DNA of 49,299 nucleotides, from positions 1 through 49,299 of IMG/VR virus record IMGVR_UViG_3300005573_000126; one strand, 5' to 3'. Shown one piece after another: positions 8,931 to 40,002 of the stretch. A program made the position numbers and the translations under genes. The notes under the pieces are model-generated. The model was given only the letters and a program-made list of their open reading frames with translations. It did no database searches and was not told the DNA's origin. The first letter of the stretch is position 1, and each line of letters begins with the position of its first letter. The stretch is from a virus. Lineage: Duplodnaviria > Caudoviricetes.

Positions 8931-9770
8931 ATGAAACAATTGAAAATAACTCGGACAATCACGTCCCGTAACGATTCTATCAATCGTTACTTTAACGAAT
9001 TGGAAAGGATTCCTGTTGAAAATCAGGAGTCTATTTATGAATTGGTGAGAGCCGGAGATAAGGAGGCGATAAACACCCTTATTGCCAACAATCTTCGGTT
9101 TGTTGTTTCTGTCGCAAAGCAGTATCAAAATCAGGGGTTGTCGTTAGACGACCTTATACAGGAGGGAAATGTTGGGTTGGTGGTAGCAGCCCAGAAATTT
9201 GACCCTTCTCGTGGGTTTAAGTTTATATCTTATGCCGTATGGTGGATAAGGCAGTCTATTCTTATGGCTATTGATACCCACAAGAGGCAGATACGTATTC
9301 CCATTAACATTCTTCGTTATTCCGGGAAGGTTGAAACTGAAATTCAAAGGATGTTGTCGGAAAACGAAATACCGACGGTTGAGGATGTAGCAAAAAACAC
9401 TGGGCTAAGTGAAAGTTTAGTCCGGTTTATAATGTACCACAAAACAAGCTATGTAAATTTAGAGGCTTCTATTCACGATGATACGGATAGCAAGGTGATA
9501 GACATTGTCGAAAACAAAAATTCACCAAGTCCGGATGACGAATATCATAGAATAAACCGCAATGAAATGATAATAAAGGCACTCAGCATGTTGTCTGAGA
9601 AGGATGCCTTAATCATCAAAAAGCGGTTTGGCATTTTAGGTGAAGAGCAAAAAAGCATTACAAGCATTGCCAGTGAGTTAAAGATAAGCAATACTGCTGT
9701 AACGACAAGATACAAGAAGGCGATTAAAAAACTGCGCAAATACGATGCGTTAAAGGAGTTTTTGAAATGA
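8931..9770 (+). CDS. phage-encoded RpoD/SigA-family sigma70 factor (Bacteroidota type, no region 1.1)
   Basis: MKQLKITRTITSR N-terminus like the Bacteroidota primary sigma; NLRFVVSVAKQYQNQGL.L.DLIQEGN.GL; FDPSRGFKFISYAVWWIRQSI. Confidence 0.95.
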   Translation: MKQLKITRTITSRNDSINRYFNELERIPVENQESIYELVRAGDKEAINTLIANNLRFVVSVAKQYQNQGLSLDDLIQEGNVGLVVAAQKFDPSRGFKFISYAVWWIRQSILMAIDTHKRQIRIPINILRYSGKVETEIQRMLSENEIPTVEDVAKNTGLSESLVRFIMYHKTSYVNLEASIHDDTDSKVIDIVENKNSPSPDDEYHRINRNEMIIKALSMLSEKDALIIKKRFGILGEEQKSITSIASELKISNTAVTTRYKKAIKKLRKYDALKEFLK

Positions 9771-9903
9771 AGCCTATGTTTTTGAATTTCAATTTTGGCG
9801 CCCACCCTCAGAACCTTATAAGGAAAAATTTTTCCATCCTTTGAACCTAATAAGAGAAAAAGTATTAGATTTGCAACACAGCTTTTCGTTATTTCTGATT
9901 TGG

Positions 9904-9946
9904 CAGGGCTGAAATATCGGGATGATATTCAGCCCTGTGTTTTTTT
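9904..9946 (+). terminator. rho-independent terminator of the rightward early operon
   Basis: cagggctgaa...ttcagccctg stem followed by a T7 tract. Confidence 0.8.
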
Positions 9947-9956
9947 GAGCAAGCAT

Positions 9957-9983
9957 AAAAAAAGCCGGAACAGTGTCCGGCTT
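9957..9983 (-). terminator. rho-independent terminator of the leftward early operon
   Basis: aagccgga-acagtg-tccggctt with an A-run on the + strand (U-tract on the - strand). Confidence 0.8.
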
Positions 9984-10000
9984 CCTTTAAGTATTTTTAC

Positions 10001-10216
10001 TTATTTTTTCTTCGGCAATAAGAACGGTATGAATAGCAGTATTGAAGGGATAACTGCCAAATATCCTTTCATATTAATAGATAACAAAAAGGCGCATGGT
10101 AGCATGATAAGGGCAGGGATTGCCCAAACTGTATTCTTTTTTACCATGATAATTGCCATTATCATCCAAATAAGCAAAATCGCAATCATAGTGTTATAAT
10201 TTTTATTGTTTATCAT
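10001..10216 (-). CDS. small membrane protein
   Basis: Three hydrophobic stretches, basic C-terminus. Confidence 0.65.
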   Translation of the reverse strand: MINNKNYNTMIAILLIWMIMAIIMVKKNTVWAIPALIMLPCAFLLSINMKGYLAVIPSILLFIPFLLPKKK

Positions 10217-10791
10217 ACTGGGATAGGTATTTGAGAATAACCAGTGTCAGTAAATATCATACTATCAATTAGTTGCATTTGCATTAATTTACATGCAGCA
10301 GCAACTTCTTTCGTCATTTGTATATCAGCTTCGCTCGCAATAAGACTACCACCTGGGTGGTTATGTATTATTGCAATAGATGTACTATTGCACAGTATTC
10401 CGTGCTTTATTATAAGCCTGACATCATAAGTGCTTCTGCCAATACCTCCCATACTTATTTTAATTTTCTTTATAACATCCAGACTATTTGATAAATAAAC
10501 CACCCAGATTTCCTCGTGGTCTAAACCCATTAAGTGTGGTTTCATTAAGTTATATAACTTAATGGGTTCATTTATTTGATTAACTTCAGTAAGTAGTGTT
10601 TTGGAAAATTCTTTATAAAACTCTATATACGAATAGATTTTTAAGGCGCTATCATTCTTTATGTTATAATTAGCCTGTAATTCCTCCACTGTCATTTTAA
10701 GCAGAGAGTTTGCTGAGGCTTCTATTTTAGAATAGTCCTCTTCATCTATTATGTTTTTTAAAATTTCTTTCGTCGTTTTCATAAGAAACAT
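10213..10791 (-). CDS. RadC-like JAB domain protein
   Basis: LDHEEIWVVYL, ISMGG, IIHNHPGGSLIASEAD, LIDSMI; N-terminal HhH-like remnant. Confidence 0.92.
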   Translation of the reverse strand: MFLMKTTKEILKNIIDEEDYSKIEASANSLLKMTVEELQANYNIKNDSALKIYSYIEFYKEFSKTLLTEVNQINEPIKLYNLMKPHLMGLDHEEIWVVYLSNSLDVIKKIKISMGGIGRSTYDVRLIIKHGILCNSTSIAIIHNHPGGSLIASEADIQMTKEVAAACKLMQMQLIDSMIFTDTGYSQIPIPV

Positions 10792-10792
10792 A

Positions 10793-11059
10793 TTATATCA
10801 TGTTAATTATTTCATTTTTTTCCTCCGTCTCCAGCTCATAGTCACCGTCATTGACAGTGACTACACCACCCTCCACCTTAATTTTATAAATAAAAATCTC
10901 CGTGTCCGGTATATACCCCCGTGACGGGTTCATATTCCTGTAATCCAATTCCAAATTTGTAAACGCTTCTTCATACGAAGATGCGATTTGTTTGTTTTTT
11001 AACGCATCCAGCAGGTCGTAACCCGCTCTGTGGTACGCATAAAAAATTTTCTTTTTCAT
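10793..11059 (-). CDS. hypothetical protein
   Basis: ORF in a tightly packed operon. Confidence 0.65.
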   Translation of the reverse strand: MKKKIFYAYHRAGYDLLDALKNKQIASSYEEAFTNLELDYRNMNPSRGYIPDTEIFIYKIKVEGGVVTVNDGDYELETEEKNEIINMI

Positions 11060-11070
11060 AGTTGTAAGAT

Positions 11071-11280
11071 TTAATGTTTAATAATTAAGTAAATGAAAAA
11101 TCCCGCCAGTAAAGAAATGGTGGTGATAAGAATAAAGGCTTGTAATGAAAAGTTTTCGATAAATCCCATAAGGAATGTTATAACAAGTACGGCAAGGGGG
11201 GTGTATTTGCTTCGTTTAGCCGTCAAATAGGCCAACCAAAGTGTACTTATAAAAAATAGTAAGATTACAATTGAGTTCAT
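11071..11280 (-). CDS. small membrane protein
   Basis: Three hydrophobic segments. Confidence 0.65.
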   Translation of the reverse strand: MNSIVILLFFISTLWLAYLTAKRSKYTPLAVLVITFLMGFIENFSLQAFILITTISLLAGFFIYLIIKH

Positions 11281-11286
11281 AATTCT

Positions 11287-11454
11287 TCAATTTAAAGAAA
11301 TTTCAGCAACATATCCAACATTGATTAGTTTGGTCGGCAAGCCGGGAAATAGCATTTTAATTACAGCTTGCGCCTCAATCTCATTTTGAGCGACTATCTT
11401 TTTTATTATAGGCTCATCGCCGTACGTGACGGCAAAAGTGCATATCATTTTCAT
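11287..11454 (-). CDS. 55-aa hypothetical protein (not in ORF track)
   Basis: MKMICTFAVTYGDEPIIKKIVAQNEIEAQAVIKMLFPG...; exactly fills the gap between its neighbours. Confidence 0.7.
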   Translation of the reverse strand: MKMICTFAVTYGDEPIIKKIVAQNEIEAQAVIKMLFPGLPTKLINVGYVAEISLN

Positions 11455-11457
11455 ATA

Positions 11458-12111
11458 TCAATTAATTTTATAAATTGTACCATCATCAAAAAATAAGGCA
11501 TCGTGATTATAAATCTCATCAATAATTCCTTCGTCGCTATACCAATAACTAAATTCCTCGGTAAACGTGTTGCTTATTTCTCTAAAGCAAAGCCTTGTCA
11601 AATCGTAAAAGTTATATCGAAAATCGGGATGTTCTAAAAATTTGTATATAGGGCTTAATATATCATCGTCGTAACATACTCCAGTTAAAACTGTATCATT
11701 TGTAAGTATGATACGTGAATGGTAACTATTTGAATATTTACCATTTGCATGTTTATGGGTTGTTATACAAGGATGATATACTGGTCTATCATCAATTGAC
11801 AGGTGACCAAAGTATTTGCCGACGAAGAGTTTGTCTCCAAATCTATTCCATATAGCCTTGGCTAATCTTTCTCCTGTCAGAGAAAGAAAATTATCATCCA
11901 GTTCGATACGATAATCGTTTCGCCACGGTTCTATATAGTCAATATTTCTATAATTTATGCAAAAAAGATTACAAAAAGCCTCAACAGTGTTATCATATTC
12001 AGATTGGTAAAAATAATCACCATCTCTGAATTTTTTTCTGTAGTCTTCAATAGCGTTAGATTTTGCTGTTGAAGATAATTCATCAAAGGGATAAACGTTA
12101 ATTGTTTTCAT
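11458..12111 (-). CDS. conserved-type phage early protein
   Basis: VYPFDELS..AK..AIE N-terminus and acidic Y..SDE.I.D.I....F..DG C-terminus, a pattern recalled from phage/plasmid leading regions. Confidence 0.75.
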   Translation of the reverse strand: MKTINVYPFDELSSTAKSNAIEDYRKKFRDGDYFYQSEYDNTVEAFCNLFCINYRNIDYIEPWRNDYRIELDDNFLSLTGERLAKAIWNRFGDKLFVGKYFGHLSIDDRPVYHPCITTHKHANGKYSNSYHSRIILTNDTVLTGVCYDDDILSPIYKFLEHPDFRYNFYDLTRLCFREISNTFTEEFSYWYSDEGIIDEIYNHDALFFDDGTIYKIN

Positions 12112-12135
12112 AGCTTTATAGTTTTTAGGTTAATA

Positions 12136-12447
12136 TTAAAATGGGCAAATTATGAGAATAATTTCATTTTTATTATTGACAATCTGGTAGTAAATAGCAG
12201 ATTTTCCTTTCAGTTTATCAAAATTTACTTTTATATGAAAGGACGAATATGTACGAATAAAATCTTCGCAATCAATAATTACACCAGTTGATTTTTCTGT
12301 AAAATCATCTGGCGTCATTAATAATTTTTTGCCTACATACTTTGGAATACCTTCCAGGTTATCCCATTTGTGGTATATTGCTATCCCAGATTCAGGGTAT
12401 AACACTATACCTTTCGATGTTTTGGTCAAATCAATTAGACGTTTCAT
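12136..12447 (-). CDS. hypothetical protein
   Basis: ORF with ATGA overlap. Confidence 0.65.
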   Translation of the reverse strand: MKRLIDLTKTSKGIVLYPESGIAIYHKWDNLEGIPKYVGKKLLMTPDDFTEKSTGVIIDCEDFIRTYSSFHIKVNFDKLKGKSAIYYQIVNNKNEIILIICPF

Positions 12448-12674
12448 ATCACTTTTTTTTTAGGAAATATAATAGGTTCGTTAAAATACATTCTTAACGT
12501 TTCTTCCAATTTATCTTTTGATGATATATTTAGAGTAAATATAATTCTTATTTTGTTCGGCGTGTATTTTGTAATATTCACAAAACCTTGCCACACAAAG
12601 GCTTCAAAATCACCTTTTACAAATTTGTTTGAAGCCACATAATTAAATCCGAATTTTAAAAGTATTTGTTCCAT
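12444..12674 (-). CDS. hypothetical protein
   Basis: ORF overlapping both neighbours. Confidence 0.65.
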   Translation of the reverse strand: MEQILLKFGFNYVASNKFVKGDFEAFVWQGFVNITKYTPNKIRIIFTLNISSKDKLEETLRMYFNEPIIFPKKKVI

Positions 12675-13180
12675 GTTAAAAAATATAAGTTAGAATATAA
12701 ACTATCTCCTAATTCATAGAACAGATGCCGGTTTAGTATGATAATTTTATTTTTATTCATAATCACAAGCCGGCTTCCGTTAATAATAGATTGAAGGTAT
12801 TGCAAATAATTCATATCTTCCAATCGGTTAACGTCAATATCTTTAGCGAACATGTATGTATCGCTAAACTTCCTATTGCCATAGCCGGCTATTATGCCGT
12901 TATGAACAATAGCGGTATTTTCGTTAACGGCAATAGGCTGAGTATTAGCAACATCAATACGCCCGTGTGTCGCAAAGCGAAAGTGCAACACAATTGTGCC
13001 GTTAAATTTTTTTCTAAGGTTATAATATTCCTTTATAACCTTATCATTGTTCAGATTTTTGTAAATGTTCAGATGGTCGGAATACCACATCATACCAGCT
13101 CCGTCAGGGTTGTAGGCCGATGCCTGACGAAGTATATTGCGGGATAATGTATCCCGCCTATTTATAATGATTACGCACAT
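12656..13180 (-). CDS. class II glutamine amidotransferase (Ntn hydrolase)
   Basis: N-terminal MC nucleophile, NPDGAG, HFRFATHG, NTQP, VHNGII, SDT. Confidence 0.92.
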   Translation of the reverse strand: MCVIIINRRDTLSRNILRQASAYNPDGAGMMWYSDHLNIYKNLNNDKVIKEYYNLRKKFNGTIVLHFRFATHGRIDVANTQPIAVNENTAIVHNGIIAGYGNRKFSDTYMFAKDIDVNRLEDMNYLQYLQSIINGSRLVIMNKNKIIILNRHLFYELGDSLYSNLYFLTWNKYF

Positions 13181-14132
13181 ATTCTAATAATTTAATAACT
13201 ATATCCGTTTTCCGCAAATCTGGACTCAACCCTACGTATAGCGGAAATGGTTTGTCATAATACGTAAGGTCGTCGGTTATATAGTTGACTGCACCAACTG
13301 CGACAGCCAATTCAGGCAGCCGTGGGCAGTATAAGATATTTTCACCACGTTGCTTCTTCAGCCCGAAAAATACTACCGGAACAGGCAGTTTGAAGTCCGG
13401 TACATCAACAAATACTCCATAATAATCATCTCTATATGAGAATGAGTATTTGTTTGTGATTTCGCTGGCACTCACCCAGTTATTATTAATGGGGTGGTGC
13501 TTATTTTTTGCAGCCTTGTCAATTTCCTGCAGCAAGGTTGCAAAATCATGCTTATTTAAGAAGTGCTTATAATTGTTATATTCTGGCGCAACAGGGTCGC
13601 CAGTCGCCGTCAGGTTATATTTAACAACACTTAAGGCAATCTTGTAAGCCAACTTAAGCGTCAGCTTACACAGTAACGGGGTCGCCAGCCACCCAGCCGG
13701 CAGGCTTCGGTACTCAAATCCGTACCTTTTGGGCTCGATAGCGCTTTTATAGTTGTACCCTCCTCTGGCACTGCCCTGCAGCTTATCAAAAAGGGGGTAA
13801 ACATAGCTATCCATAGCAGCGGCAATCTTATAAGCCTTGCGATGAATAGCAAAGTGGATATGCCCGCCTATTGCGTAAGTGTCGCCCGCAATAGTCAGGC
13901 GTAAGCCCTCCTTGTCAGCCTGCTTAATTATTTTGCGCAGGCTGAAATATACCGAGTTCCAGCTCCCAGGCAATGGGCGTAACTCAGCAACCTTCGGGCA
14001 GCCATCCAACCCGAATGGTTCATTATTATATGGGTCGCTGACATAGTTATCGGCATCAACTACATGCCCATAACTATTCATGAGTTCAACTTCTGGGTCA
14101 GCGCCCATCATTATATATCTTTTTTTGCCCAT
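13158..14132 (-). CDS. phiEco32-like COOH-NH2 ligase type 2 (amidoligase, glutamate-cysteine ligase fold)
   Basis: GADPEV, FGLDG, AELRP, GGHIHF, YGFEYRSLP. Confidence 0.9.
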   Translation of the reverse strand: MGKKRYIMMGADPEVELMNSYGHVVDADNYVSDPYNNEPFGLDGCPKVAELRPLPGSWNSVYFSLRKIIKQADKEGLRLTIAGDTYAIGGHIHFAIHRKAYKIAAAMDSYVYPLFDKLQGSARGGYNYKSAIEPKRYGFEYRSLPAGWLATPLLCKLTLKLAYKIALSVVKYNLTATGDPVAPEYNNYKHFLNKHDFATLLQEIDKAAKNKHHPINNNWVSASEITNKYSFSYRDDYYGVFVDVPDFKLPVPVVFFGLKKQRGENILYCPRLPELAVAVGAVNYITDDLTYYDKPFPLYVGLSPDLRKTDIVIKLLEYVRNHYK

Positions 14133-14156
14133 TCTTTTCTTTGCTTTTTTTTAAAT

Positions 14157-14479
14157 GCCAGCCAGGGGGTTTAGCCCTGACTGGCGTAGGTCTTACGATT
14201 TTTCCATTATCGTGAAGGGTCGGTTATAAGTCCGACAACTACCCTTGCGGGCAACCCGCAGACAGCTCACCGGATGTTACTCCGGCTTCCTTGCATTTTT
14301 ACACCTCCGTCCCTGCGGCGACTTCGGCAACCTTAACACTTTGTGCCAGTTACTGTACTTCGCTGTGCACGCCCGGATAAGGATAGGCTAAATATCTTTT
14401 ACCTCCTGGGCTTCATTACTCCAATCCCCCGACCGCCACTGTCGGGGCATATCGTCATGGGCCGTGGCCGCCCTATATC
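14157..14479 (-). ncRNA. candidate structured non-coding RNA/leader
   Basis: GC-rich (about 55% in the lines counted), no long ORF, at least five hairpins including a GCAA-tetraloop stem with G-U pairs on the - strand. Confidence 0.5.
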
Positions 14480-14659
14480 TTACAGGGTTATCCAACCATG
14501 ATTATACCCCCAGCCGGCATATGCCAATTGAAGGGCCTCGGACACTTCCCGGCGGCTGCGGAATACCCTCCCTTCAAAGGGGTATTCCTTACCACCATTA
14601 ACAACGAAATACGGACGATATCCTCCGTCCACATTTTCAATTTTTACTCTTGTTTTCAT
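14480..14659 (-). CDS. 59-aa first gene of the leftward early operon (not in ORF track)
   Basis: MKTRVKIENVDGGYRPYFVVNGGKEYPFEGRVFRSRREVSEALQLAYAGWGYNHGWITL; A-rich leader aaaaccaaaaaaacaaaagccATG. Confidence 0.75.
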   Translation of the reverse strand: MKTRVKIENVDGGYRPYFVVNGGKEYPFEGRVFRSRREVSEALQLAYAGWGYNHGWITL

Positions 14660-14690
14660 GGCTTTTGTTTTTTTGGTTTTAATTACGATT

Positions 14691-14721
14691 CAAATATACA
14701 TCAACTTTTTCCAGTTTGCAA
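14691..14721 (-). promoter_or_regulatory. strong Bacteroidota-type early promoter
   Basis: On the - strand: TTG (14721-14719), 20-nt spacer, TATATTTG (14698-14691); A-tracts upstream. Confidence 0.75.
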
Positions 14722-14796
14722 GTTTTTTGCGTATTTTTTGCGCACTTTTTTTGAAAAAAGTTTGAACTCGCTGTAAATCAGCAAGTCACAAACGTA

Positions 14797-14815
14797 ATTT
14801 AGAATGATTCTTAAT
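14797..14815. promoter_or_regulatory. 9-1-9 palindrome, Fur-box-like operator
   Basis: ATTTAGAAT-G-ATTCTTAAT (one mismatch from perfect dyad). Confidence 0.45.
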
Positions 14816-14851
14816 AAGTCGTCAAACCAGCTCGCAGAGCGGATTTCAGCC

Positions 14852-17404
14852 CTATATGCATTGCGATATTCTTACGTCGCCTGATATGTGTGATATATAG
14901 CTGTCTTTCAGCAATTTACCAGCTATTTCTATGATGTAATATACATTGCTGTACCCGCTTTTACTGGCTATAAGTGGTTTATCTCCTTTCGTTGCTGTTG
15001 CAATAACGGGATAATAAGGTGTGTAGTCGTTTAGACTTCCGTATATAGCCATTGCGACGATGTTGTTGCCGGAATCTAACAGTCCGTTAACGGTTATATG
15101 CGAGAGGTGTTTATTAACCCCGTCGCTGGATATTTTGACAGGTAACGTCAGGATGTAGCAGTCCGTAGGCTCGTCGTAATCTTCTGTGGTCAGGTCGTAT
15201 ATTTTGCCGTTATTTATTCCGTGAGGTTTATTGCCGTACATTATTATATGGTAGGTATCCGTCCGCTTATACCACATTCTCGTCTCAACGTTGTACACCA
15301 ACGAGTAGTTGTAATCCGGATTGCAGATGATTAGCTCATTGTACGTGTCGTCAATTATCAGCTGTCCGTTATCTATCATTGACAGATAGTCGTTATCATT
15401 GCTCAGATAGCCGACTATTGCCGTCAGGTTAGTCGTCAGCTTGTCGTGTACTGCGCCGGTTATTCTGTTACCTTTAGTTATTCCGGCAATGATTTCCTGC
15501 ATAGCTACCGATCGCCCTGACTGCCATAACTGCAACCCACGGTTGCTATTATATATTATGTATCCCTGCCCCGACAGAGTTGGCCCGGTTATGCCCGGTT
15601 CACCGCCTATAGCTACATTTCCTTGCGGATAGCCTTCGGCAGATAACTGCACGGCTACCAGCCCGTTAGTTGTTATTACAATAATTGGGTGCGTTCCGTG
15701 AGGTTCGGTAGCCAATGGTGACGTATTGATTCCTATGCCAGTCACCGTGCCTGCCAACGACAGCCTGTAAGCAGGAGGCGCAACGAGCGGATTATCAATG
15801 TTCGTCACCGCAACGACGTTCTGCAATGGGTGGGTGATGTCAGGTGCGTACCCCGCATGTGGGAATCCTGACAGGTCGGTTCCTATTTGGGTGTAAACAT
15901 CCCTTTGATTCAGGGATGGAATATCTACGGTATCATTTTCGTTATGGTCTAAAATACCGTAAGCCAGATTCAGGAATGGGTGTTGGTACAGGGTATAAGA
16001 TTTAATGATATAGTAGTTAGGGTCGTTATTAGGTTTAACGACGACGTTAATTTTGTATGCGTTTACATGGGGGTAAGAGATGATAAGGGGCAGGTATAGG
16101 ATATTTGAATTTATGCTAAAGGAGGAGCGGGTGATGATAGTACCGGCGCTGGTACGGATGAATGTATCGAGTGATATTTGGTATGTAGAGCCTGAGAAGT
16201 TGAATGGGGAGAATACAGTGAGTGGGTATCCGTTATAATATTTGACAGTGATATTACCGTGCCAGATAGCGGAGTTATAGACGATAGAGGTTTTGGAGTG
16301 TAGTTTATGGAGGGAATTAGGGTCAACCTGAATCATTTCGAGGGCAGACCAAGTATTGAATTTAGGCAGGGTAATTTGTTTGCCGTTGGTAGTAGAGAGT
16401 TCTTCGAGAGGGATAGAAAGGATTTTAAAGAGTTTATTTTCTTGGAGGAGTTGTTTGAATTTATAAGGTTGGTGATATGATTCTATTTCTTGGTTATTGA
16501 TTTGTGGGTATTTACCGGAGGAGTTGAATTTAGATTTAGGTTCGGAAGCCCAGATGGTGACATTTTTGATAATGTTTTTGTAATTATTTTTGAGAGTAGA
16601 TATTTCGTTATTAAAGGTAGCAGGGATGACGTAGAATAGTTGAGCTGGGTCGAGGTTACGGATGCGAACGTAGTATTGAGGTTTGCCTTTGACGAGTTTA
16701 GAGTCCTTGACGTGATATACGTCGTTTGAGTTCCCGGCGTAAATAGTTCGTAAGGGGGAAGGTGAGACGTGGGTGCCGTCGTATAGTTCGTATGTAATGA
16801 CATATGAGATATAACCTTCGACGAGGTTTTCATTTTCGTACCATTCTTGTAGTTTGGTAAAGACGGCTGAGTTGATGGCGTTGATGTAGTCTTCGTGTTC
16901 GCTTTTGTCGGTAACGTTGACAGAAATCTGACCTTTGTCAATCATATTAGCTGTGAAATACAGGCAGATGGGGTCAGGGAGGGATGGTATAAAGCGGTAG
17001 GAATTTATTTCGGTGTCGAACCAGATATAAGAAGTATCCTTGTCGGTATCGTTAAATATGACGACCATATTCCCGACGTATTGGAATCGTACTTTCTTGT
17101 TGGTATATATGTATGTGACTGGTGTAGGTTCGCCGGTAGAAGTATTGATAATGTCAACATAACCGGTATCGGAGTTATAACCGATGAGGTTTGTTGAGCC
17201 ATTAGGCAGGTTATGGGCGAAAAAGGTATAATTACCGGAAGGTACTTTGAGGCCGGTATCATGTTTTTTACCGACCGGTTGCCATGAGCCGTTACGGTTA
17301 CGGAGGTTAATAATTTCGGCACAATATACGTCTGGAGCGACATTTTCCGGTATATTGTTAGCCATACCTTTTAAGGTAAACCGATATTGATTATTTGTTT
17401 TCAT
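14852..17404 (-). CDS. tail tubular/nozzle (stabilization-type) beta-propeller protein
   Basis: 850 aa, beta-rich; N-terminal KGM......PD..C.EIINLR...G..QPV typical of podovirus nozzle/gp10-like proteins; D..YNELII.NP. Confidence 0.65.
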   Translation of the reverse strand: MKTNNQYRFTLKGMANNIPENVAPDVYCAEIINLRNRNGSWQPVGKKHDTGLKVPSGNYTFFAHNLPNGSTNLIGYNSDTGYVDIINTSTGEPTPVTYIYTNKKVRFQYVGNMVVIFNDTDKDTSYIWFDTEINSYRFIPSLPDPICLYFTANMIDKGQISVNVTDKSEHEDYINAINSAVFTKLQEWYENENLVEGYISYVITYELYDGTHVSPSPLRTIYAGNSNDVYHVKDSKLVKGKPQYYVRIRNLDPAQLFYVIPATFNNEISTLKNNYKNIIKNVTIWASEPKSKFNSSGKYPQINNQEIESYHQPYKFKQLLQENKLFKILSIPLEELSTTNGKQITLPKFNTWSALEMIQVDPNSLHKLHSKTSIVYNSAIWHGNITVKYYNGYPLTVFSPFNFSGSTYQISLDTFIRTSAGTIITRSSFSINSNILYLPLIISYPHVNAYKINVVVKPNNDPNYYIIKSYTLYQHPFLNLAYGILDHNENDTVDIPSLNQRDVYTQIGTDLSGFPHAGYAPDITHPLQNVVAVTNIDNPLVAPPAYRLSLAGTVTGIGINTSPLATEPHGTHPIIVITTNGLVAVQLSAEGYPQGNVAIGGEPGITGPTLSGQGYIIYNSNRGLQLWQSGRSVAMQEIIAGITKGNRITGAVHDKLTTNLTAIVGYLSNDNDYLSMIDNGQLIIDDTYNELIICNPDYNYSLVYNVETRMWYKRTDTYHIIMYGNKPHGINNGKIYDLTTEDYDEPTDCYILTLPVKISSDGVNKHLSHITVNGLLDSGNNIVAMAIYGSLNDYTPYYPVIATATKGDKPLIASKSGYSNVYYIIEIAGKLLKDSYISHISGDVRISQCI

Positions 17405-17981
17405 GGTTATTCGGTTTTAAGTTTTTGTTTTCAGATTCTTTTTCGAGTTTTTTAATTACTTGGTCTTTATTGGTTATTTCATCAAGTGGTTCGACGTCTT
17501 GGACGTTAGATAGTTCTTTTTGCTGTTGAGGGAGGAATTGATTACCGAAGAAGACATAGGTTTTGTTGTTTTGGAAAGTTTGTTCAGCCTCTTTACGACC
17601 CATAACACCCATAGTTTTTTCAATTGATTCGTCGAGATATTTAAGGAGGTTGACTACACGGTTGAGGTCTTCTTCCATCATGAGGAGTTTTTTGGCACGT
17701 TCAATAGCTTGCATTTTGACGTCCCAAGCACGCTTCATGAAGGTGGCTATGTGTTTTTTTTGTTCGTTATTAACGACCTGAAGAGCCGATTTTATTTCTT
17801 TTGAGTTGTCAAGTACGTCTTTACCGTACATTTTTTCCCACTTTAAAAGGCTGCCTACCGATATATTCAGTTCACGAGATGTTTTGGAATAGTTCATTCC
17901 ATTTGCTTGAAGCATTTTGAGGGCAGCTATACGCTCGGCTATGCTGTATTTGCGCATCAATCTGTCTTCTGTTTTGTCCAT
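17391..17981 (-). CDS. HTH protein, putative terminase small subunit
   Basis: N-terminal HTH (YSIAERIAAL...YSKTSRELNISVGSLLKW), helical oligomerization-like middle, disordered tail; no DDE domain. Confidence 0.55.
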   Translation of the reverse strand: MDKTEDRLMRKYSIAERIAALKMLQANGMNYSKTSRELNISVGSLLKWEKMYGKDVLDNSKEIKSALQVVNNEQKKHIATFMKRAWDVKMQAIERAKKLLMMEEDLNRVVNLLKYLDESIEKTMGVMGRKEAEQTFQNNKTYVFFGNQFLPQQQKELSNVQDVEPLDEITNKDQVIKKLEKESENKNLKPNNHENK

Positions 17982-18084: not shown

Positions 18085-18699
18085 ATGGATCCGGTAACCA
18101 TTGCTCAAATAGCTGCATTGCTGTCCAAAGGTGTTTCAATGGCTGGTAATGCCAGACAGAACTGGCAGTATCAGAATATGATAAACAATGAAAAATCAAA
18201 TGCCTATAACTGGTATAATGCCTTAACAAGACAGCCATATATGCAAAGAGCCGACGCACAAAGCACAATAACCCAGTTAACTGGCATGCTCAAAAAGAAT
18301 ATGAGCCAGATGGCGAACCGGTCAAGGGTAATCGGTGGAACACCTGACGCATTGAACTCGTTACAGAGCGGTGCCCAAAATACAGTAGCTAATACCGTAG
18401 GCAGAATGGCTGGCAATGCCGACCTGCAAAAAATGAGAGCATACCAGTTGCTCATGTCACGACTGAATCAGCTAAATACTATGCAGGCTGGCAGATATAA
18501 TGCTAAGATAAATTCATGGAACAACATTTCTGCCGACGCCAATCAGGTTCTTAATACCTTACTCATGTCTCAAATGGTTGGCGCTAAAGGTCTGCCAACG
18601 GGAGCAACAAATGGCATTAATATGAATAACTTGAGTAGTATTATTTACAGATACCTGCAAGGTGCACCGAAACTCAACGTACCGAAACTCATCCCATAA
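18085..18699 (+). CDS. putative DNA ejection/internal virion protein (P22 gp7-like position)
   Basis: MDPVTIAQIAALL start; rich in Q/N/A/M/G and helical; first of three genes before the portal. Confidence 0.6.
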   Translation: MDPVTIAQIAALLSKGVSMAGNARQNWQYQNMINNEKSNAYNWYNALTRQPYMQRADAQSTITQLTGMLKKNMSQMANRSRVIGGTPDALNSLQSGAQNTVANTVGRMAGNADLQKMRAYQLLMSRLNQLNTMQAGRYNAKINSWNNISADANQVLNTLLMSQMVGAKGLPTGATNGINMNNLSSIIYRYLQGAPKLNVPKLIP

Positions 18700-18711
18700 A
18701 CAATATATAAA

Positions 18712-19707
18712 ATGAACAACAACGAAGATGATGTTTTTGGTCAACTAATTAACAACTTAATTGCCAATAAGCCTACCTATAACCAGCAGGCTGCAAAAAA
18801 TTACGAGAAGGTGGCTAAAACAAGCGCCTTCCTCGATGCTATTCAATTGCTCACAAAAACACTTGGTGGCATAGGAGGCGCTACCGTAAATAGAGAAGAA
18901 CCCAATCGAGTGGTGCCTAATGCCCTCAACATGTATAACAACGATTACCAGAAATTCAAAAATGACCTCGACCGGTGGAATAGTATCTATTCAAATATAA
19001 TGCTTCAAAAACTTGCCAACGATAAATGGCAAAAACAATTTGATGCAGAACAACAATATAGAAATGCACAAATTGATATGCAAAAATTACGTACATTAAA
19101 TAGCAAAAAAATTACCACAAGCACAAAAGAACAAAAACCATTCTACACTCTTATTGATTCAAAAACAGGTACTAAACTTCACCTGCCGACACAAGGCGAC
19201 TTCGACTACCTCTGGAACCAAATACGAAATGCCTACCTTAACGGAGAATATCAAGGCAAACTTTCACAGGAAGATGACCTGTCAATGAAAAACTTTATTG
19301 ACCCTCAATTTAAAAATGAAACACTGAGAAAATCATTATTGAACAAACTATGGCTATTGCATCCGCAAATTTATAACGACCTGATTACTGGTAAAACACC
19401 ATATATACCGTTAACAAATACAAATAATTTGATGCCACAGACAAATACACCAACTCAGACAAGTAAACCAACTCAGACAAATACATCAAGTCAGACAAGT
19501 ACAATAACACAACGGCAACCGGTGGTAACTGAAAATAAACAGAAGGCAAACGCTGTTAAACAAGAACCTACACAAACAACGACGAGAACAGATACAATAC
19601 GTGGCAAGAGCGGTATAACAATGGAACAATTCCAAGACCTGATAAGACTTGGACAGAAACTACAAAGAATACAAGAAGCACAGGCAAAAAAGAAAAAAAA
19701 TAAATAG
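18712..19707 (+). CDS. putative DNA ejection/internal virion protein
   Basis: Amphipathic LLTKTLGGIGGA segment, coiled coil, T/Q-rich linker. Confidence 0.55.
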   Translation: MNNNEDDVFGQLINNLIANKPTYNQQAAKNYEKVAKTSAFLDAIQLLTKTLGGIGGATVNREEPNRVVPNALNMYNNDYQKFKNDLDRWNSIYSNIMLQKLANDKWQKQFDAEQQYRNAQIDMQKLRTLNSKKITTSTKEQKPFYTLIDSKTGTKLHLPTQGDFDYLWNQIRNAYLNGEYQGKLSQEDDLSMKNFIDPQFKNETLRKSLLNKLWLLHPQIYNDLITGKTPYIPLTNTNNLMPQTNTPTQTSKPTQTNTSSQTSTITQRQPVVTENKQKANAVKQEPTQTTTRTDTIRGKSGITMEQFQDLIRLGQKLQRIQEAQAKKKKNK

Positions 19708-19709
19708 CC

Positions 19710-22700
19710 ATGATTTATCTTGAACCTGAAAAAAACAATAATTTAATTCTTCCTTTGGAAAACAATGAGGCTGAAATTAACCTGTCATTTACAAACCAGC
19801 CAGAACAAGAACAACAGGAAGAAAGCACAACCATTCCAATACAAACAAACCAACCTCAACAACCGGTAAAAAATATTACACTGACACAACCTGTCAGTGA
19901 CAAACAAAGCAATAAACCAGAAGAAACTTATGAGGAAGGACTTACTACACCTGATATAAAAACTATCAATCACCTTTTTTCTATTACAAACAAAAAAAGC
20001 ATTGACCCCGATAACCCAGTTATTGACGAAAATACAGTAAAAAACTATTTCAACGCTTTATACCATTTAGGTAAAAATGAGTTTGGAGACCAGTTTAATC
20101 CACCTAAGGAGTTTGAAAACCTTGCTTTTGAAAAAGGTTTTGGTAAAGGTTTTAAATCCGGACTGAAACAGATTAAATATGATTTTCAATATCTTTCTCA
20201 AGAACTTAGTAAAAAGTTTGATGAAAATTTAGTATATGAACTTGACGATGATATTCGCTCAGGAATATGGGATACAAGTAAATCACCTGAACAGTTAGAA
20301 CAAGACCTGAAGTTCTTTCGTGAAAAAGAACAAGAAGAAGCTGAAAAAAGAAATCAGTTACAAAGACAACCAAGTGCCCTTTCATTTGGAGTTTCCCCTG
20401 TATTTGATACAACAAGTGCTATCAACAATCAAACTGATGAAGAAAAATTTTATGCCAAGAATGCAACCAAAACAGAACTGTGGCTGAACTTACTCAAACA
20501 GTTTGATGGTGACACCGAACAGGCAAAACAATTTCTGCATCAGTTTAAATCTTCAATGGCACCACATGAAGCCAAACAAAGAGAAATAATCAAAGAGAAA
20601 TTCAATATACCTGAAGGGAAAGGACTGTTTTATGACATAGGCAATATGGCACCACAAGTTGCGCCTATTGCTATATCAATGGCAGTTAGCCCTGTTGCCG
20701 GTTCCACTGTTTCAGGAATTTTAGGCACAGTCGTAGGTACAGCTATGGCATCAATGACAGCTGCTGATGCCTTGATGAACTACGACCAGTATATGCATGA
20801 CAAAGGTTATGCTATTGACCCAAAAGAAAGATTTGGTATTTCCATTTCAGCTGGTATTGTTGAGTATCTTACAGAAAAAATTCCTTTTGACAAGGTGTCA
20901 AAAAGACTTGTCAAAGGAACATTGATGAAAACAATTCTATCAGAAGGAGGCGAAAAAGGATTTGAGATTCTTGAAAAATATCTGCCCAAAGATTCCAGAT
21001 TGAAAGTGCTTTATAATAAAGCAATTAAACTATTAGCTGAAGGTAACAATGAAGGACTTGAAGAAGTAACCTCAGAAATAAACCAGATACTCGGTGAACA
21101 TATCTACCAAGATAAAGCAGACTGGCAGTCATTCAACGATATGGCTAATAGAATAAAACAATCCTATGTTGGTGGCGCCATGATGCGTGCTATGCTTGTC
21201 CCTGGCGAAGTTGGAATACAACATGCACAAAGAAAAATACGCTGGAACAATCAGGGTGTTAACCTTGCATCAGCAAAGGACGGTACCATTTTTGAAGTAT
21301 TAAATGTTGACTACGACAAAAATAATCCTAAAAATACAGTTTACCACGGCGAAACAAAAGATGGCAGAGAAGTCGAATATAAGGCTTCAGAACTCGACCA
21401 TTTTGTCCATTTTGAACCTGACGAAGTAAAACAATACAATGATGCCCTACAAACTGCCGATAAGGCAAAAATAGAGGCAACTAAACAAAATATCATTGAG
21501 AAACGAGTACAAAGAACTAAAGATGAAGCACTTGGTCTATTCAATAGTCTCGGAGTAAAAACCGTTGACCCCAATACCGGTAATGCTGTTGTCAAAATAG
21601 CTGATGACAAATATGGAAATAGCTGGTTGATTATTGACGAAGATGCTGATAATAACACAGCCGTAGTAGCAAAATTCAATCCGCAAACATCAGAGATTTC
21701 GGACGAGCGTAAAATGATGAATGCAAACGATTTCACCAATATTAGCATATTCGACACTGACCAGCTTGCCACCGAAATAGCAGAAAATACAAGACCAGTA
21801 GTAACTGAAGAACTCGGATTAAACCAGCCAACAGAAGAAGAACAAACACAGCAGACAAATGCTGAACCTGTTCTTCCGGTTGGAGTAGCACCCGGTAAGA
21901 CCATTACCTTCCGTAACCAAAAGTATGTTGTCAGTGAAATAAAATCTGATGGTAAAATTTACGCTGACCCAGTTGATTATGAAGCTAATGCATCAACAAT
22001 CATAACACCTGACCAGTACAAAGAAATACAAATCGAAGGTGCAAATACACAGGCTAATCAGACTGCGCCACAAGCTCAACCCACCGCCGAACAGACACAG
22101 CCGGAAGCACCCACCGCCGAACAGACACAGGGACAAACAAACACTAATCGCATATCTATTGATTTACAAGGAAATAAATTCAATGCAACAGTAAGTAATG
22201 ATGGCACCATTATTATTGATAATGTGTTTGAAGGTGCAACCGGTAAAGAAGAAGCTGAACAATTAGTTCATGCACTCAATAAAGAATATGACAATAACCC
22301 AGCTTTTGAATTAGTCAAATTGCCAAAACAAACCGATAACACAATTGAAAAACCAAAATATCAAATAATTGCTAAACCGAATCAAAATGAAAAACCTCAA
22401 GAACAACCTGCATCAACTAATAAAATTACAGGAACAGGGAACATTGAAACCCAAAAACAAAATAAAACCGAGAAAACTGAACAAAAAGGACAACCTGAAA
22501 CCAAAACCGAGATAAAAAACGTAGCCAATACTGAGAAAAAAGAAACCAAACCTCAACAGGAAGTAACAAAGACTTATGATGAACAAGTAAATGACTTCAT
22601 TAATGACTTTTTAAAGAAACATAACGAAGATGTAAACTGGTTTCTTGTTTATCGTGGTTTGAGGCATAATGATACCAACGACATAAGATATTATCTTGAT

Positions 22701-25700
22701 AAAGGTAAACTTTCATTGGCTGAATTGAAAGAATTTATTGACGAATATAATAATCAGAATTTTGCTAAGGAAGATGTAAGTAAAATTATGAATACTACAT
22801 ACGAAAGGGTGAAGGAATCTTACGAAGAAAGTTTAAAGAAAGAAGCCAAACTTCAGTCTGAAAAAGAAGCAAAGGAAACTACGCCAAAAGCAAAAGAAGC
22901 TGCACCGACAATGACTGAAAAACAGCCTGAAACAAAGGCTGAAACGAAAAATGTTGTTTTCACTGAAGAAGCATACGAGGCTGCACTAAAAAGGCTCAAG
23001 GAAAGATTTGGTAGATTAAATGCCGGTATTGACCCCACAATTCTTTCTGACGGTATAATCGTTGGAGGTTTCTACGTTGAAAAAGGTATTCATAAATTTG
23101 CCGAATGGTCTAAAAAGATGCTTGAGGCTGTTGGCAAAGAAATACAACCATATCTTAAATCAATATACCGTGCTGTAAAAACTTGGCCGGGCATGGAAGA
23201 ATATGCCAAAAATATGGACAGCGATGAGTATATTGAAAAGTACAATTTTGAACAGGAAGAGAAGCCGGAAACTCAGTTGGAAACTCAGATGGAAACTCAA
23301 AATAAACAAGAAAGTTTAAAAGATATTACAGAATTAAAAGAAGAATCAAAGAGTGAAGTTCCAAAAGACAAAACCAAAGTATATATTGACAATGAACCGG
23401 TTGACTTTAAAGATGCTGTAATGGCATACTTTCAACTTAAAAATTTGTTGAATGTAGAAATAAAGAACAAGAAGGCAGCCAAAGATGAAAATTACTCATT
23501 TTATAATAGCGAATTGGAAACATTAGGTGAAGCTATTAAGAAGTATGCTAATGCTATTGATGAGTATCTTAAAAATAACGAAGCACCAGACCCGGAATTA
23601 GAAAAACAATACACTGAATCAAGAAAAAAGATTACTGATAAGTCACCATTGTTAGAGTACAAACAAACCAAACATACAAAAACCGGTGAAACACTTCATG
23701 TTGGTATTATCAAATTTAAAGTCGTCAATTACAAAGACCTTGTTAGAGCTGTAAATGAAATTGACCCAAAGGCATATTATTCAACATTTGTCAAAGGGTT
23801 TATATTCAGCAATGAAGAACTTGCAAAGAAAGCAATCGAAACTATTCATGCAATAGATTATACGATTGATACCGAAGGTATATTCACACCGACGGTAGAA
23901 AAAGCTGCAAAAGAAACTTATCAGGTAGCAAAAGATTTACTTAATAATAAGGATAAGGTTCTTGTAATTAAGGTACCAAAAAATGAAAATACTAAGGCTG
24001 AAATCAAATATGAACATCCTTTAACCGATTCGGATAGATTATTGAAATATCCCAATTCTGAAGGAGATATATACTCATACACATTTTATAAAAATGGCAA
24101 ACTTTCATATACAATGGAATTTGCCGTATTGCCTAACGAAGGAGTAATATATCCCGTAAGAGTTGACGAACAAAAAAATGACGGTAAAATTGAACATGGA
24201 GAATGGATATTGAAGGGAGTTATCTATCAAGGGTATGATGGTGGAAATTATGAGTCGGCAATTTCTGCAATAAAACAAACATTCATAATAGCTAAAAAAT
24301 ACGGATATGGAAACGAAGAAAAACCCGAAACTAACCCCGAAGCAGTGGGACAACGTGTACAGATTATTGAAGGTCAAGAAAAGGCTGTTAGAGACGAAGC
24401 GGAAGCTCGAAGCAACGAGGCAAGAAATTCTGGCAAAACAGAAAGACTGACAGAAAGACTGAATGAAGTCAAGCAAAATCTGAATGAAGTCGAGCAAAAG
24501 GTTGACAATCTCATTAATAAAATAGTAAACGAACTTGAAAATATGGGTATTAGCGAAAAAAATACCCCAAAAGGTACTAACTTTGAACAAGAAACCAATA
24601 AACCTGAAAGCAATGGACGACCTGAGGTATCACCCACTGTTCATCAGCCTGCTAATATGGAGCAGGGAGAACAATCAAGGAATATTCATGAACAAAACAC
24701 CAGAGGAGGTGCAGAAAAGACTAACGGAGAAAGTAAACCAAGCACTGGTTTACGAGGAAATGCTGAGGGAAAAGGGAATACCGGAAGACCTGATACCGGA
24801 ACTGGTGAACGGTTATCTAATGCCGGAACCCGAAGTGGAGGAGAAGCCATATCCGAAGGCGAAGTTCCTAAAAATAGTCAATCAAATTTATCAGGGGAAT
24901 CTGCCAACAGCAATGCTGTAAAAGAGAATCACATTATTGCACCTGATGACGTAATTGTCCCCAAAGGCAAAAAGGCTAAAATGCGTGCCAATATTGAGGC
25001 TATACGCATTTTAAAACAGTGCCAGAAAGAGAATAGACAAGCTACGCCAGAAGAAAAGAAGAAATTAGCCCAATATACCGGTTGGGGTGGTTTGGCTGAT
25101 ATATTCAACTCAGATGAATATGCAGAAGAATACAGAGAGTTAAGTGAATTACTTACATATAAAGAACTTGGTTCAATAAAGAAATCAACCATAAATGCCT
25201 TTTATACTTCTAAACCGGTTATACAAGCCATGTGGAAAATGGCAGAAAAACTTGGTTTTAAAGGAGGCATTGTTCTGGAGCCGGCAGCCGGTGTCGGTCA
25301 TTTTATGGGATTTGTTCCAGAAAACTTACGTAGCAAAACTAAATTCAAGGCTGTTGAACTTGATAAAATTACCGGTGAAATAACCCAACTTCTTTACCCA
25401 AATGCCGATGTATCGGTTACTGGATTCCAAGATGTCAATGTTAAACCAAATAGCATTGACATGGCAATTACAAACGTTCCTTTCGGCAATATTCGAGTAT
25501 ATGACCCCAATAACAAAGACATTTCCAGTAAATTCAATCTTCACAATTATTTCATTGCCAAGATAGTACGTGCCTTAAAACCGAACGGTATTGCCATTGT
25601 AATTACAACGTCAAGTACAATGGACAATGGCGGACAAGGTACTGACTTCAGAAAATGGTTAGTCAATGAGGGAAATGCTGAACTTGTTGATGCTATCCGG

Positions 25701-28700
25701 TTGCCAAATAATGCGTTTAAAGATAATGCCGGTACGGAGATAACAACCGATATTCTTATTATACGTAAACTTGATACAGGAGAAACAGCCCAAAACAATT
25801 TCATCAACATAGAAAAGGTCGGAGAAGGTAAAGTAAATGACAAAGTAATACCTATCTATGTTAATGAATTTTTTGCCCAACACCCTGACAGAGTTCTTGG
25901 TAAAATGGCTATTGCTGGTGAAGTTGGTTCTGGTGCACTTTATTCTGCTGAATCAACAACTTGCGCACCTGTTCCTGATATTGATGTGGAAGAAAAATTA
26001 AATGAAATTGCTGATAAAATAAAACCGGTTGAGCATATAAGTACCACTGAAATTACACCTCAAATACAGGCTGCAAAAGAAGAAGAATCTAAAGACAAAC
26101 ATAAAGAAAATGAACTGTTTGTAAAAGGTGGGAAAATCTATCAAAAGGTAAATGGTGAATTAGTTGAATATGCAGATGTTGGAAAGAATGTTGCCAACAA
26201 AATTAGGGTATTACAAAGCTATAAATCAATTTCAGATTCATTACATAAACTTATTGAGTTAGAAAACAATCCTGAATCAAGCGAAAAAGAAATTGAGGCT
26301 GAACGTAAAAGGTTAAATGACCTTTACGATGACTTTGTAAAGAAATATGGCACTCTGAATAATAACAGAGCAGTAAGCTGGCTTTCTGATGATGTTGATT
26401 TTTATCGTATAGCAGCCATAGAAAATGTTACAACAGAAATTACGTATGATTTACAAAATCAAAAGGTTAAAAAGAATGTAAAGATTACGAAATCAGATAT
26501 TTTCAATAAGCGAGTAATCAATCCCAAAGCCATTGAAACAAAGGCAGAAACAATAGACGATGCTATAAAATTTTCATTTACTCATACCGGCAAATTTGAT
26601 ATTGATTATATATCTAAATTACTTGGCAAGAACAAGTATGACGTTATTCAGGAAATGCTTGATAAGGGATACATATTTGAGAATCCTGAAACAGGTGTTT
26701 ATGAATATGCCGATGATTATTTGTCCGGTAATGTGGTTAGAAAACTTGATTTTGCTAAGAATGCTGCCAAAGACAATCCGAAATATGAAGCAAATGTAAG
26801 AGCACTTGAAAAAGTTCAGCCTAAAAGAAAGTCTATAAATGAAATAGGCTTTAAACTCGGTTCTACATGGATTGACCCTGCGATAGTAGAAAGATGGGCA
26901 TTTGAATATTTTAACTATCCTTCATACTATAAATTTTCAGTAAAATATATACAAGATGTAGGATGGGTAGTTGACTACAATAAGCATGCAACCTCACCAC
27001 AGATTGCCTCGTCTGAAGTTAAAGGCATGTCACCTTTTGCCTTGTTGGAACATAAGCTGAATAATCAGAGTACAGTAATAAGAAAAAAGGTTGAAAACAA
27101 TAAGTTTGAACAAGACAAAGAGGCAATGTCGCTTGCTGAAGCAAAGAAGCAAGAATTTGAAAATAGTTTCAAAGAATGGTGTTATAAAAATGAAGATGTA
27201 TATACTAAACTTGAAGATAAATACAATGAAATTTATAATAGCACTATTCCGAGAAAAGATATTCCCAAAACAGAATATTATCCCGGAGCAAATACCAATA
27301 TTAAATTAAGAGAGCATCAAAAAAGAGCTGTTGATAAATGCCTTGCCGGTTCAACACTTATTGCTCATCAGGTAGGTACCGGCAAAACATATACGCTCAT
27401 TACGGCTGCGATGGAAATGCGTAGGCTTGGTTTAGCAAGAAAGCCTATGATTGTTGTGCAAAAAGCTACATTACCACAGTTTGTGGAATCTATTTATAAA
27501 TTGTATCCTAATGCAAAAGTATTGGTGCCGAGAGATAAGGATATGTCTGCATCTGAAAGGAATAAATTCCTTAACAAAATAGCGTATGGCGACTATGATA
27601 TTGTTGTTGTTACACATGACAATTTAAGATTAATACCAGATAAACCTGAAAGACTTGAATTATATATTCAGGAACAAATTGATAGATTAAATGAATTGAA
27701 ACAAGAATCAAATAATGATAGGAATACTATAAGAGAAATTGATAATCAGATAAAGCAATGGCAAAATATTGGTGGAAAAAAGAAAAATAAAAAGGGCGCA
27801 ACTTCTAATGAAGAATATGCAGCCCAAGAAATACCAATAGGTAATGTAAAACAAAATTCAAAAGAAGAGATTAGGATTGAAGAAAGTATTAAAAAACAGG
27901 CTGGTAGAAGAACTGCTAATGTGTTCTATTTTGAAGATTTAGGTATTGATGCCCTGCTTATTGATGAAGCACATACATACAAACGTCTTGGTTTTATTTC
28001 AAAACTTAATCGAATAAGAGGCATTGACAAATCAAAGAGCCAAAAATCATTGAGTGCCCTGATGAAAGTCAGGTACATACAAGAAAAGAAAAATGGCAAA
28101 AATGTCGTAATGGCTACCGGAACACCAATAAGTAATACAGCAGCCGAAATATGGACTTTCATGTATTACTTAATGCCGGATAAGCTGAGAGAATTTGGCA
28201 TGTACACATTTGATGCCTTTGCTTCTAACTTCGGAGATATTTCAGAATCAATTGAACTTGGAACCAATGGTAAATTAAGAATTGTTACAAGATTCAAAAA
28301 TTATCACAACCTTAATGAGTTAAGAAAAATATTTGGTCTAATAGCCGATGTAGCATTAACAAAAGATATTCCGGAATTAAAAGAAGGAATTGGAACACCG
28401 TCGGTTGAAATTAAGCCATTTGAAAAGGTTATAATTCCTTATGAATCTGAACCACTCAAAAACATAATGAATAGAATAATTGAAACATTGAGGATATGGG
28501 AAAAAATGAGTGGTGGCGAAAAAATGAAATTGCGTCATATACCCCTTGTAATGTTTACAAGAGCAAAACAAGCTGCCATTGATGTTAGATTGTATGATTC
28601 AAGTTTACCTGATGACCCCAAAAGTAAAGTTAATATTGCAGTAGGTAAGATATACGACATTTACAAAGAAACTGATTCATACAAAGGAACTCAGCTTGTA

Positions 28701-39812: not shown

Positions 39813-39813
39813 G

Positions 39814-40002
39814 TCAGCCGAATATTTTTAACATTTTCCTAATTTGATTTGATACGTGTATTGGGTTAAGCCCGTGTTTTTCGGCTAATTTGCCATAAAT
39901 AACTTTCTTTGGAATATAAGCTGACAATTCACCATAAGACTGCATAAGTTCTTTATAGTCTTCATAAAGGCGAATTGATTTATCAGCAATATTTTTTGGC
40001 AT
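39814..40002 (-). CDS. 62-aa HTH/Mor-like protein
   Basis: Start moved to ATG 40002, downstream of the promoter; IYGKLAEKHGLNPIHVSNQIRK. Confidence 0.65.
   Translation of the reverse strand: MPKNIADKSIRLYEDYKELMQSYGELSAYIPKKVIYGKLAEKHGLNPIHVSNQIRKMLKIFG

Follow-up and report, generated by a model that had tools for sequence, protein, structure and literature searches.

Phage genomes contain fewer copies of the PAM of their hosts than expected. This under-representation is genome-wide, includes the PAMs of type I-C systems and has been ascribed to selection for escape (Kupczok & Bollback, PMC4246573; Ortega-Sanz et al., PMC12174588). Other studies concern narrower regions. In phage T5, only the first-injected DNA is CRISPR-sensitive and priming involves one strand in about 90% of the cases (PMC5389539). 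A strand bias of 70–80% was also reported for priming in type I-C systems (10.1101/137067). Protective spacers against the Thermus phage phiFa map to its terminal repeat (LTR; PMC7515739), and spacer uptake is favoured by free DNA ends (PMC5737086). As for the mutations that allow escape from Cascade in type I-E, the strongest reported are changes to G in the target strand (Kunne et al., PMC6212716).

The locus described here differs from these PAM depletions, which are statistical deficits over whole genomes (PMC4246573; PMC12174588) and, in the accessible text of PMC12174588, pool both strands. Here the loss is near-complete, spans 1 kb, affects one strand and changes conserved residues. We therefore regard the locus as a variant rather than a member of this kind: depletion there concerns both strands, and the plus strand of our locus is not significantly low. 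There are also similarities with the T5 pre-early region and the phiFa LTR, where a narrow region beside early genes is under CRISPR pressure and the spacers are strand-biased. Yet these two cases are known from laboratory spacer maps and mapped DNA ends, with no PAM desert described in the accessible parts of the papers, whereas here there is the footprint alone and the end is unmapped. Mild genome-wide PAM depletion is known. In the accessible literature that we searched, we found no PAM desert that is local or one-stranded, and no extinction that overrides a protein.

The phage and its relatives

The window, i.e. the whole stretch of 49,299 nucleotides that we analysed, represents part of the genome of a tailed Bacteroidota phage. 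It encodes a P22-like portal, an SU10-type capsid, TerL, a Bacteroidota-type sigma factor and a DarB-like methyltransferase/SNF2 helicase protein of 4766 aa (19710–34010, plus strand). The phage is best represented in hot-spring metagenomes, and no RNA dataset is listed among those that contain it. Searches for DNA of close relatives returned a single identical copy among viral contigs and only the window itself among metagenome contigs. The nearest cultured relatives are temperate phages of Bacteroides, whose TerL is 38–39% identical (PMC12694917). Three of these (BF1-TP2, BKO1-TP3 and BS-TP4), as well as uncultured relatives, share the giant protein, the portal and a homologue of the virion protein analysed below (21–23% identity). 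The sigma-70 factor (279 aa, 8931–9770, plus strand) is ~41% identical to primary sigma factors of Bacteroidota; its matches among genome contigs are from the same phylum, at 37–42%, and give no host assignment. Tandem repeats of 18 nt occur near the 3′ end of a 331-aa gene (19438–19509, plus strand). The window contains no Rfam family and no tRNA.

A one-strand void and a second zone in a virion protein gene

The PAM desert (zone 1) extends from 14825 to 15894 on the minus strand, which is the coding strand of a virion protein of 850 aa (14852–17404). The coding strand of this void has no TTT, two TTC and three CTT, and in its core (15250–15800) the counts fall to zero, zero and one. On the plus strand, no AAA is found between 14824 and 15895, leaving a gap of 1071 nt when the next-largest AAA gap is 299. 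Our strand-specific counts agree with a sequence-only reading of this DNA, which had claimed that AAA is missing from the plus strand at 14827–15894, that GAA occurs only twice (15072 and 15863) and that TTT remains common. At the rate of the window, 60.6 AAA would be expected here; we counted none, along with three AAG, 20 TTT and 21 TTC on this strand. The void itself is thus confirmed, as is the purge of TTT from the coding strand, but the motif is better described as TTY/YTT, with CTT included. The accompanying statement that AAA is ubiquitous elsewhere was too strong: coding-strand TTT is already low from ~12.8 to 17.9 kb (1–9 per 300 nt) relative to 11.0–12.8 kb (11–21).

At the rates observed in 20 other genes, the void should contain 25.1 TTT, 13.0 TTC and 13.7 CTT on its coding strand, and 10.3, 11.5 and 11.5 when local base content is considered. 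These are the three most depleted coding-strand triplets in the void. The longest TTT-free run among the 20 genes is 393 nt. Where TT remains, it has a purine on both sides in 26 of 31 cases. Given the protein, TTT and TTC are not significantly low on the plus strand, nor is AAA on the coding strand (18 versus 22.4 expected, p = 0.13). When we recoded the same protein with the codon usage of the genome, out-of-frame TTT averaged 10.4 and zero was reached in none of 3000 trials. The out-of-frame deficit is weaker with the codon usage of the region itself (TTT p = 0.02, TTC p = 0.14, CTT p = 0.16), which indicates that most of the signal lies in the choice of codons and residues. Of 701 synonymous single changes, 54 would give rise to a PAM-like triplet. 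Hence, the earlier claim that out-of-frame triplets were purged too holds against genome usage and weakly against that of the region. Avoidance of UV dimers was rejected, because TC is not reduced (39 versus 39.6). The void has no plus-strand ORF longer than 73 codons, and its predicted RNA structures revealed nothing consistent over 36 windows; one of these, of 150 nt (15600–15749, plus strand), has a folding z-score of −4.4 (20 shuffles). We also rejected a mirror void on the plus strand at 18–19.7 kb, where relatives share the low TTT, pointing to protein composition. The same likely applies to a Phe-free protein of 204 aa encoded there (18085–18699, plus strand), whose low coding-strand TTT is common to relatives.

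The consequences for the protein are extensive. It has 22 Phe up to aa 514 and none in the final 336 aa (aa 515–850), as the sequence-only reading had noticed. That reading had proposed checking whether orthologues are equally Phe-free, and this is not the case: the same segment contains 7–24 Phe in each of the homologues that 83 related loci encode (61 distinct proteins) and 10–27 in each of 122 other proteins of 780–1000 aa retrieved by protein searches. In an alignment of the 51 closest homologues, all eight columns with at least 60% Phe, at aa 540–788, are non-Phe in the window protein, where the residues are L, A, H, I, Y, Y, I and Y. The most eroded part, aa 515–680, is 18.3% identical to the 51 homologues, for which the corresponding figure averages 34.6% and is at least 26.3%; the most conserved segment of the family is the most eroded one in the window protein. 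The N-terminal part is within the range of the family (its identity is the 7th lowest of 51 for aa 1–250 and the 13th lowest for aa 251–500). Against this pattern, a separate alignment shows three conserved-Phe columns that are likewise non-Phe there. All 16 homologues scanned match phrog_32516 (E ≤ 4e-35), whereas the window protein does not. A 93% identical protein (P0003), with 27 substitutions, is equally Phe-free in the segment, which is weak evidence when taken alone. It is the sole close relative protein. Its record names a Spirochaetes MAG as the source, and the 13.9-kb contig that encodes it is likely of phage origin and misbinned. Finally, strain X3 differs from the window at 115 of 907 positions in the void (12.7%) and at 185 of 5060 (3.7%) elsewhere, i.e. 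in seven other pieces among those listed (p = 6e-24). The Phe kept by homologues, the erosion of the most conserved segment and the excess divergence of X3 show that a DNA-level constraint in the void overrides protein composition.

The sequence of the 850-aa protein suggests that it is likely a tail muzzle/nozzle. The nearest named Atlas clusters are crAss_MUZ (feature similarity 0.93; 17–18% of members), which we treat as a lead. Weak matches to tail or virion PHROGs were found in three of 16 homologues, and a search of PDB sequences gave no match for the protein.

Change-point fits for G, G3 and TTY/CTT place a compositional switch inside the gene, at 15854–15989 and best at ~15903, which makes this position a candidate genome end or pac cut. 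On the other side of the switch lies a second zone, missed by the earlier reading, which spans ~2 kb from ~15.9 kb through the TerS-like gene (zone 2; 15960–17981, minus strand). Its coding strand is C-rich and G-poor, and its plus strand G-rich. Four-fold sites have frequencies of C and G of 0.45 and 0.05 in zone 2, and of 0.35 and 0.06 in the TerS-like gene. The C–G skew reaches 0.44, against a mean of 0.004 and a maximum of 0.19 in 58 homologous genes. Zone 2 retains its PAMs, with no clear gradient of C excess near them, and its mRNA is YC-rich and weakly folding. The pentamer GGTAT is found 11 times on the plus strand at 15960–17400, versus 3.9 in codon shuffles; it may be a Chi-like or methylation motif, at a significance uncorrected over 1024 tests.

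The TerS-like gene (17391–17981, minus strand), located 1.5–3 kb from the desert, encodes a 196-aa HTH protein. Together with the HTH, an Atlas cluster with Terminase_5 among its top feature matches supports the earlier suggestion that a putative small terminase is adjacent to the void. An ORF of similar size and on the same strand precedes the virion gene in all nine environmental relatives inspected. Both zones are absent from these nine syntenic relatives and from BF1-TP2, BKO1-TP3 and BS-TP4, which keep 15–21 Phe in the segment. Three related loci (L022, L027 and L058) show mild TTY/CTT lows over the TerS-like gene at ~9450–10280 (ratios 0.15–0.22), which may reflect protein composition.

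At its other end, the desert is bordered by a promoter-like region (14680–14826, minus strand) with TAnnTTTG at 14796 and 14698 and A-tracts upstream of the second motif. We take TAnnTTTG to be the −7 promoter consensus of Bacteroidota. On the minus strand, it does not occur between 18043 and 14796. Genes pointing away from the desert on the same strand (10213–14132) are likely early or host-takeover genes, and include COOH-NH2 ligase-like, amidotransferase-like and RadC-like functions. Judging from sequence, the promoter motifs and the types of genes would be compatible with a first-injected leader of the T5/T7/phiFa type, which is followed by promoters and by early genes pointing inward. The ligase and amidotransferase-like genes form a phiEco32-like pair (12656–14132, minus strand), and the ligase gene resembles zone 1 in being G-rich at its four-fold sites. 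In run X1, the early region (10548–14473) has a depth of 12.5, an alternative contig of 570 nt (depth 7.2) joins at 14427–14473, and the depth rightward is 21.2. Hence, two forms of the early module seem to coexist in the phage population of this run. Another X1 contig (9444 nt, depth 24.4) has short collinear matches at 12873, 13915, 14090, 14255 and 14702 (window 12873–14728), and would thus come from a related element whose early region is laid out alike.

A CRISPR array with a probable tie to the phage

One low-depth contig of run X4 (depth 2.85) is identical to positions 13420–13787 and then has a loose end of 30 nt, which is an exact match to the repeat array of a Bacteroidales genome (G336). 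This repeat was found in one of 401 Bacteroidales genomes, which is also one of the five of its family, and in no other of the 401 in the class. Its two ends are identical to those of a type I-C repeat from the literature (PMC5071653), and the putative I-C subtype of the host array rests on this repeat. Rfam has no name for it, the accessible supplementary files of PMC8482600 do not contain it, and neither the repeat nor three spacer seeds had an exact match among viral contigs.

The junction in the X4 contig would correspond to a protospacer at 13752–13790 on the minus strand, starting at 13787 for an assumed length of ~35, with a TTT flank at 13790–13788. Spacer 3 of the G336 array matches a partial protospacer on the plus strand (14677–14700), also flanked by TTT (14677–14679). 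All 21 PAM-proximal bases match (14680–14700), and 26 of 35 do so overall. The nine mismatches suggest that the true target is likely a relative of this phage. The match has an E-value of 0.1 in a whole-genome BLAST and a within-array chance of 3.6e-7 per spacer; the other five of the six spacers do not match the phage. The chance that both protospacer flanks are TTT, TTC or CTT is ~0.006. Neither lead falls within the void: the DNA around both is rich in PAMs, and one of them is partial and on the plus strand.

The published ranking of type I-C PAMs starts with TTC, followed by TTT, CTT, CTC, TTA, TTG, then TCC (10.1101/137067), and TTC, TTT and CTT are all among the I-C PAMs of a second catalogue (PMC8482600). 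The triplets depleted in the void are those at the head of this ranking, and the minor PAMs CTC and TCC show no depletion. Searches for I-C cas genes in the incomplete candidate-host genomes found cas8c in none of three (the control was silent too) and Cas7 in none of five. The sole cas1, in one of five genomes (G200), lies among type III accessory genes, in a cluster with TM1812/DxTHG and Csx20-like genes (L202, G200:C160) of the candidate host genus. The start of TerL (39792–39817) has a 26-nt exact match (E = 2e-4) to a coding region of G200, which is of the same genus as G336 (L185, G200:C12:28213–28238); it is outside any array and may be due to chance or be an attachment core. A spacer hunt in 151 genomes of the family of G001 gave four with matches at E ≤ 1e-4, with 64–89% identity and all in the region of the giant gene.

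Explanations for the two zones

The two zones might be a packaging signal. In this case, TerS would bind within the gene that encodes it and in zone 2, the terminase would cut at ~15.9 kb, and zone 1 would have to lack pyrimidine runs or A-tracts, at which the terminase or the motor would otherwise cut or stall. Sites of the pac type are commonly in or near terS, the TerS-like gene lies within zone 2, whose limit at ~15.9 kb is sharp, and TerL is ~27% similar to that of 933W-like phages, which are headful packagers. However, a functional cis element should be conserved, yet the void is the fastest-changing part; the nine syntenic relatives have neither zone, and we found no repeat or recurring motif. 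We consider this explanation unlikely. Transcription is another candidate, with zone 2 as a Rho-loading tract and zone 1 avoiding U-runs, or the TTTG promoter core, upstream of a strong early promoter. The YC-rich and weakly folding mRNA fits, as does the lack of minus-strand TAnnTTTG over the region, but the void shows no significant shortage of TTG (14 versus 19.2 expected, p = 0.08), and losing TTC and CTT is unneeded against terminators. Replacing near-invariant Phe would be a high price to pay, and the excess divergence is not predicted, which leaves transcription distinctly unlikely. The sequence-only reading had offered both terminase/pac and U-tract ideas, and these explain neither the loss of TTC and CTT nor the local acceleration of divergence.

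One-strand action would be explained directly by another motif-specific defence that hits the stretch when it is unwound or transcribed. DarT-type enzymes ADP-ribosylate T in TTT and TCT, and ToxN-type enzymes cleave A-rich RNA, here from the plus strand. A local origin or an R-loop could lie where the G/C skew switches, at 15.9 kb. Such a defence is quite improbable: TCT is not purged (7 versus 9.7 expected, p = 0.23), and the void has neither a plus-strand ORF of more than 73 codons nor a consistent structure. The void could also be a by-product, either of a mosaic exchange in which the gene received its 3′ third from another phage, or of a local mutator of the DGR type (A-to-N). The boundary is sharp, GC is higher, and the relatives BKO1-TP3 and BS-TP4 encode reverse transcriptases. 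However, no Phe-poor homologue exists in the 61 loci or among the 122 proteins, and single A's are plentiful on the plus strand, where just AAA, GAA and AAG are lost. A DGR variable region was rejected on three grounds: the window, a partial genome, has no reverse transcriptase or template repeat, the span is 1 kb instead of 100–150 nt, and the loss is context-specific instead of restricted to A. These origins are very improbable. Chance acting on a low-T background would account for the modest out-of-frame deficits under the codon usage of the region, but the probability of observing no Phe in 336 aa is ~2e-8 at the rate of the family, and the void scores 57.5 when voids in 61 related loci, mostly within low-complexity or charged proteins, score at most 26.0. 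Its likelihood is negligible.

We favour, with slightly better than even confidence, the hypothesis that PAMs were removed from one strand by repeated escape from a type I-C-like CRISPR system of the host, at the cost of conserved Phe. Among the ideas of the sequence-only reading, the best fit is that of a segment that is injected first and avoids a strand-specific factor, which would be a type I-C-like PAM. One step of this process, the DNA-level purge that overrides the protein, with its local excess of divergence, is observed; another, the tie between a Bacteroidales array with an I-C-type repeat and the phage at two TTT-flanked sites, is partly established. Spacer uptake would be concentrated in this region and biased to one strand, as when adaptation is primed close to a DNA end that is free or enters first. 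Mutants of PAM and seed would be selected in every round, until the strand becomes PAM-free. The switch at ~15.9 kb may be that DNA end, or the limit of Cas3 travel. Since priming from minus-strand protospacers would sample toward higher coordinates, the pressure would peak at the end near 15.9 kb, where the erosion of the protein is greatest. The desert would halt on the other side at the promoter-like region, which requires T-runs. On a more speculative note, zone 2, where PAMs are intact, might escape by G substitutions in the target (plus) strand. Its G-rich and C-poor plus strand, the target for minus-strand PAMs, matches the polarity of escape from type I-E, i.e. an excess of G on the targeted strand; the link is post hoc, and PMC6212716 shows the effect for type I-E only. 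Since both strands are potential targets, its authors do not expect a bias over a whole strand. Several observations weigh against CRISPR escape. Plus-strand PAMs persist in the void, in the form of the TTC and TTT counted above, the two spacer leads map elsewhere (one through a single low-depth contig), CTC and TCC are undepleted, I-C cas genes did not turn up in the incomplete genomes, and three conserved Phe are replaced in the N-terminal part as well. Furthermore, a PAM without a spacer is costless, so that full loss demands very high local uptake.

A more specific version of CRISPR escape, which we put forward tentatively and regard as rather doubtful, is that the end of the virion DNA is fixed at ~15.9 kb in the muzzle gene. 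The flanking 3 kb would then be the fossil of a one-strand arms race with type I-C systems, with PAM extinction in a leader of 1.07 kb before the early promoter and a G-enriched target strand where PAMs survive.

If CRISPR escape is the cause, CRISPR pressure in nature would be so strong and so focused that even near-invariant positions of a virion protein are rewritten. Zone 2 would provide a natural example of G-biased escape, which was predicted but thought hard to detect, and strand-specific k-mer deserts would reveal the entry end of a phage and the PAM of its host from phage sequence alone. Even without CRISPR, a two-zone DNA code over an essential gene, absent in all 61 related loci, would represent an undescribed constraint.
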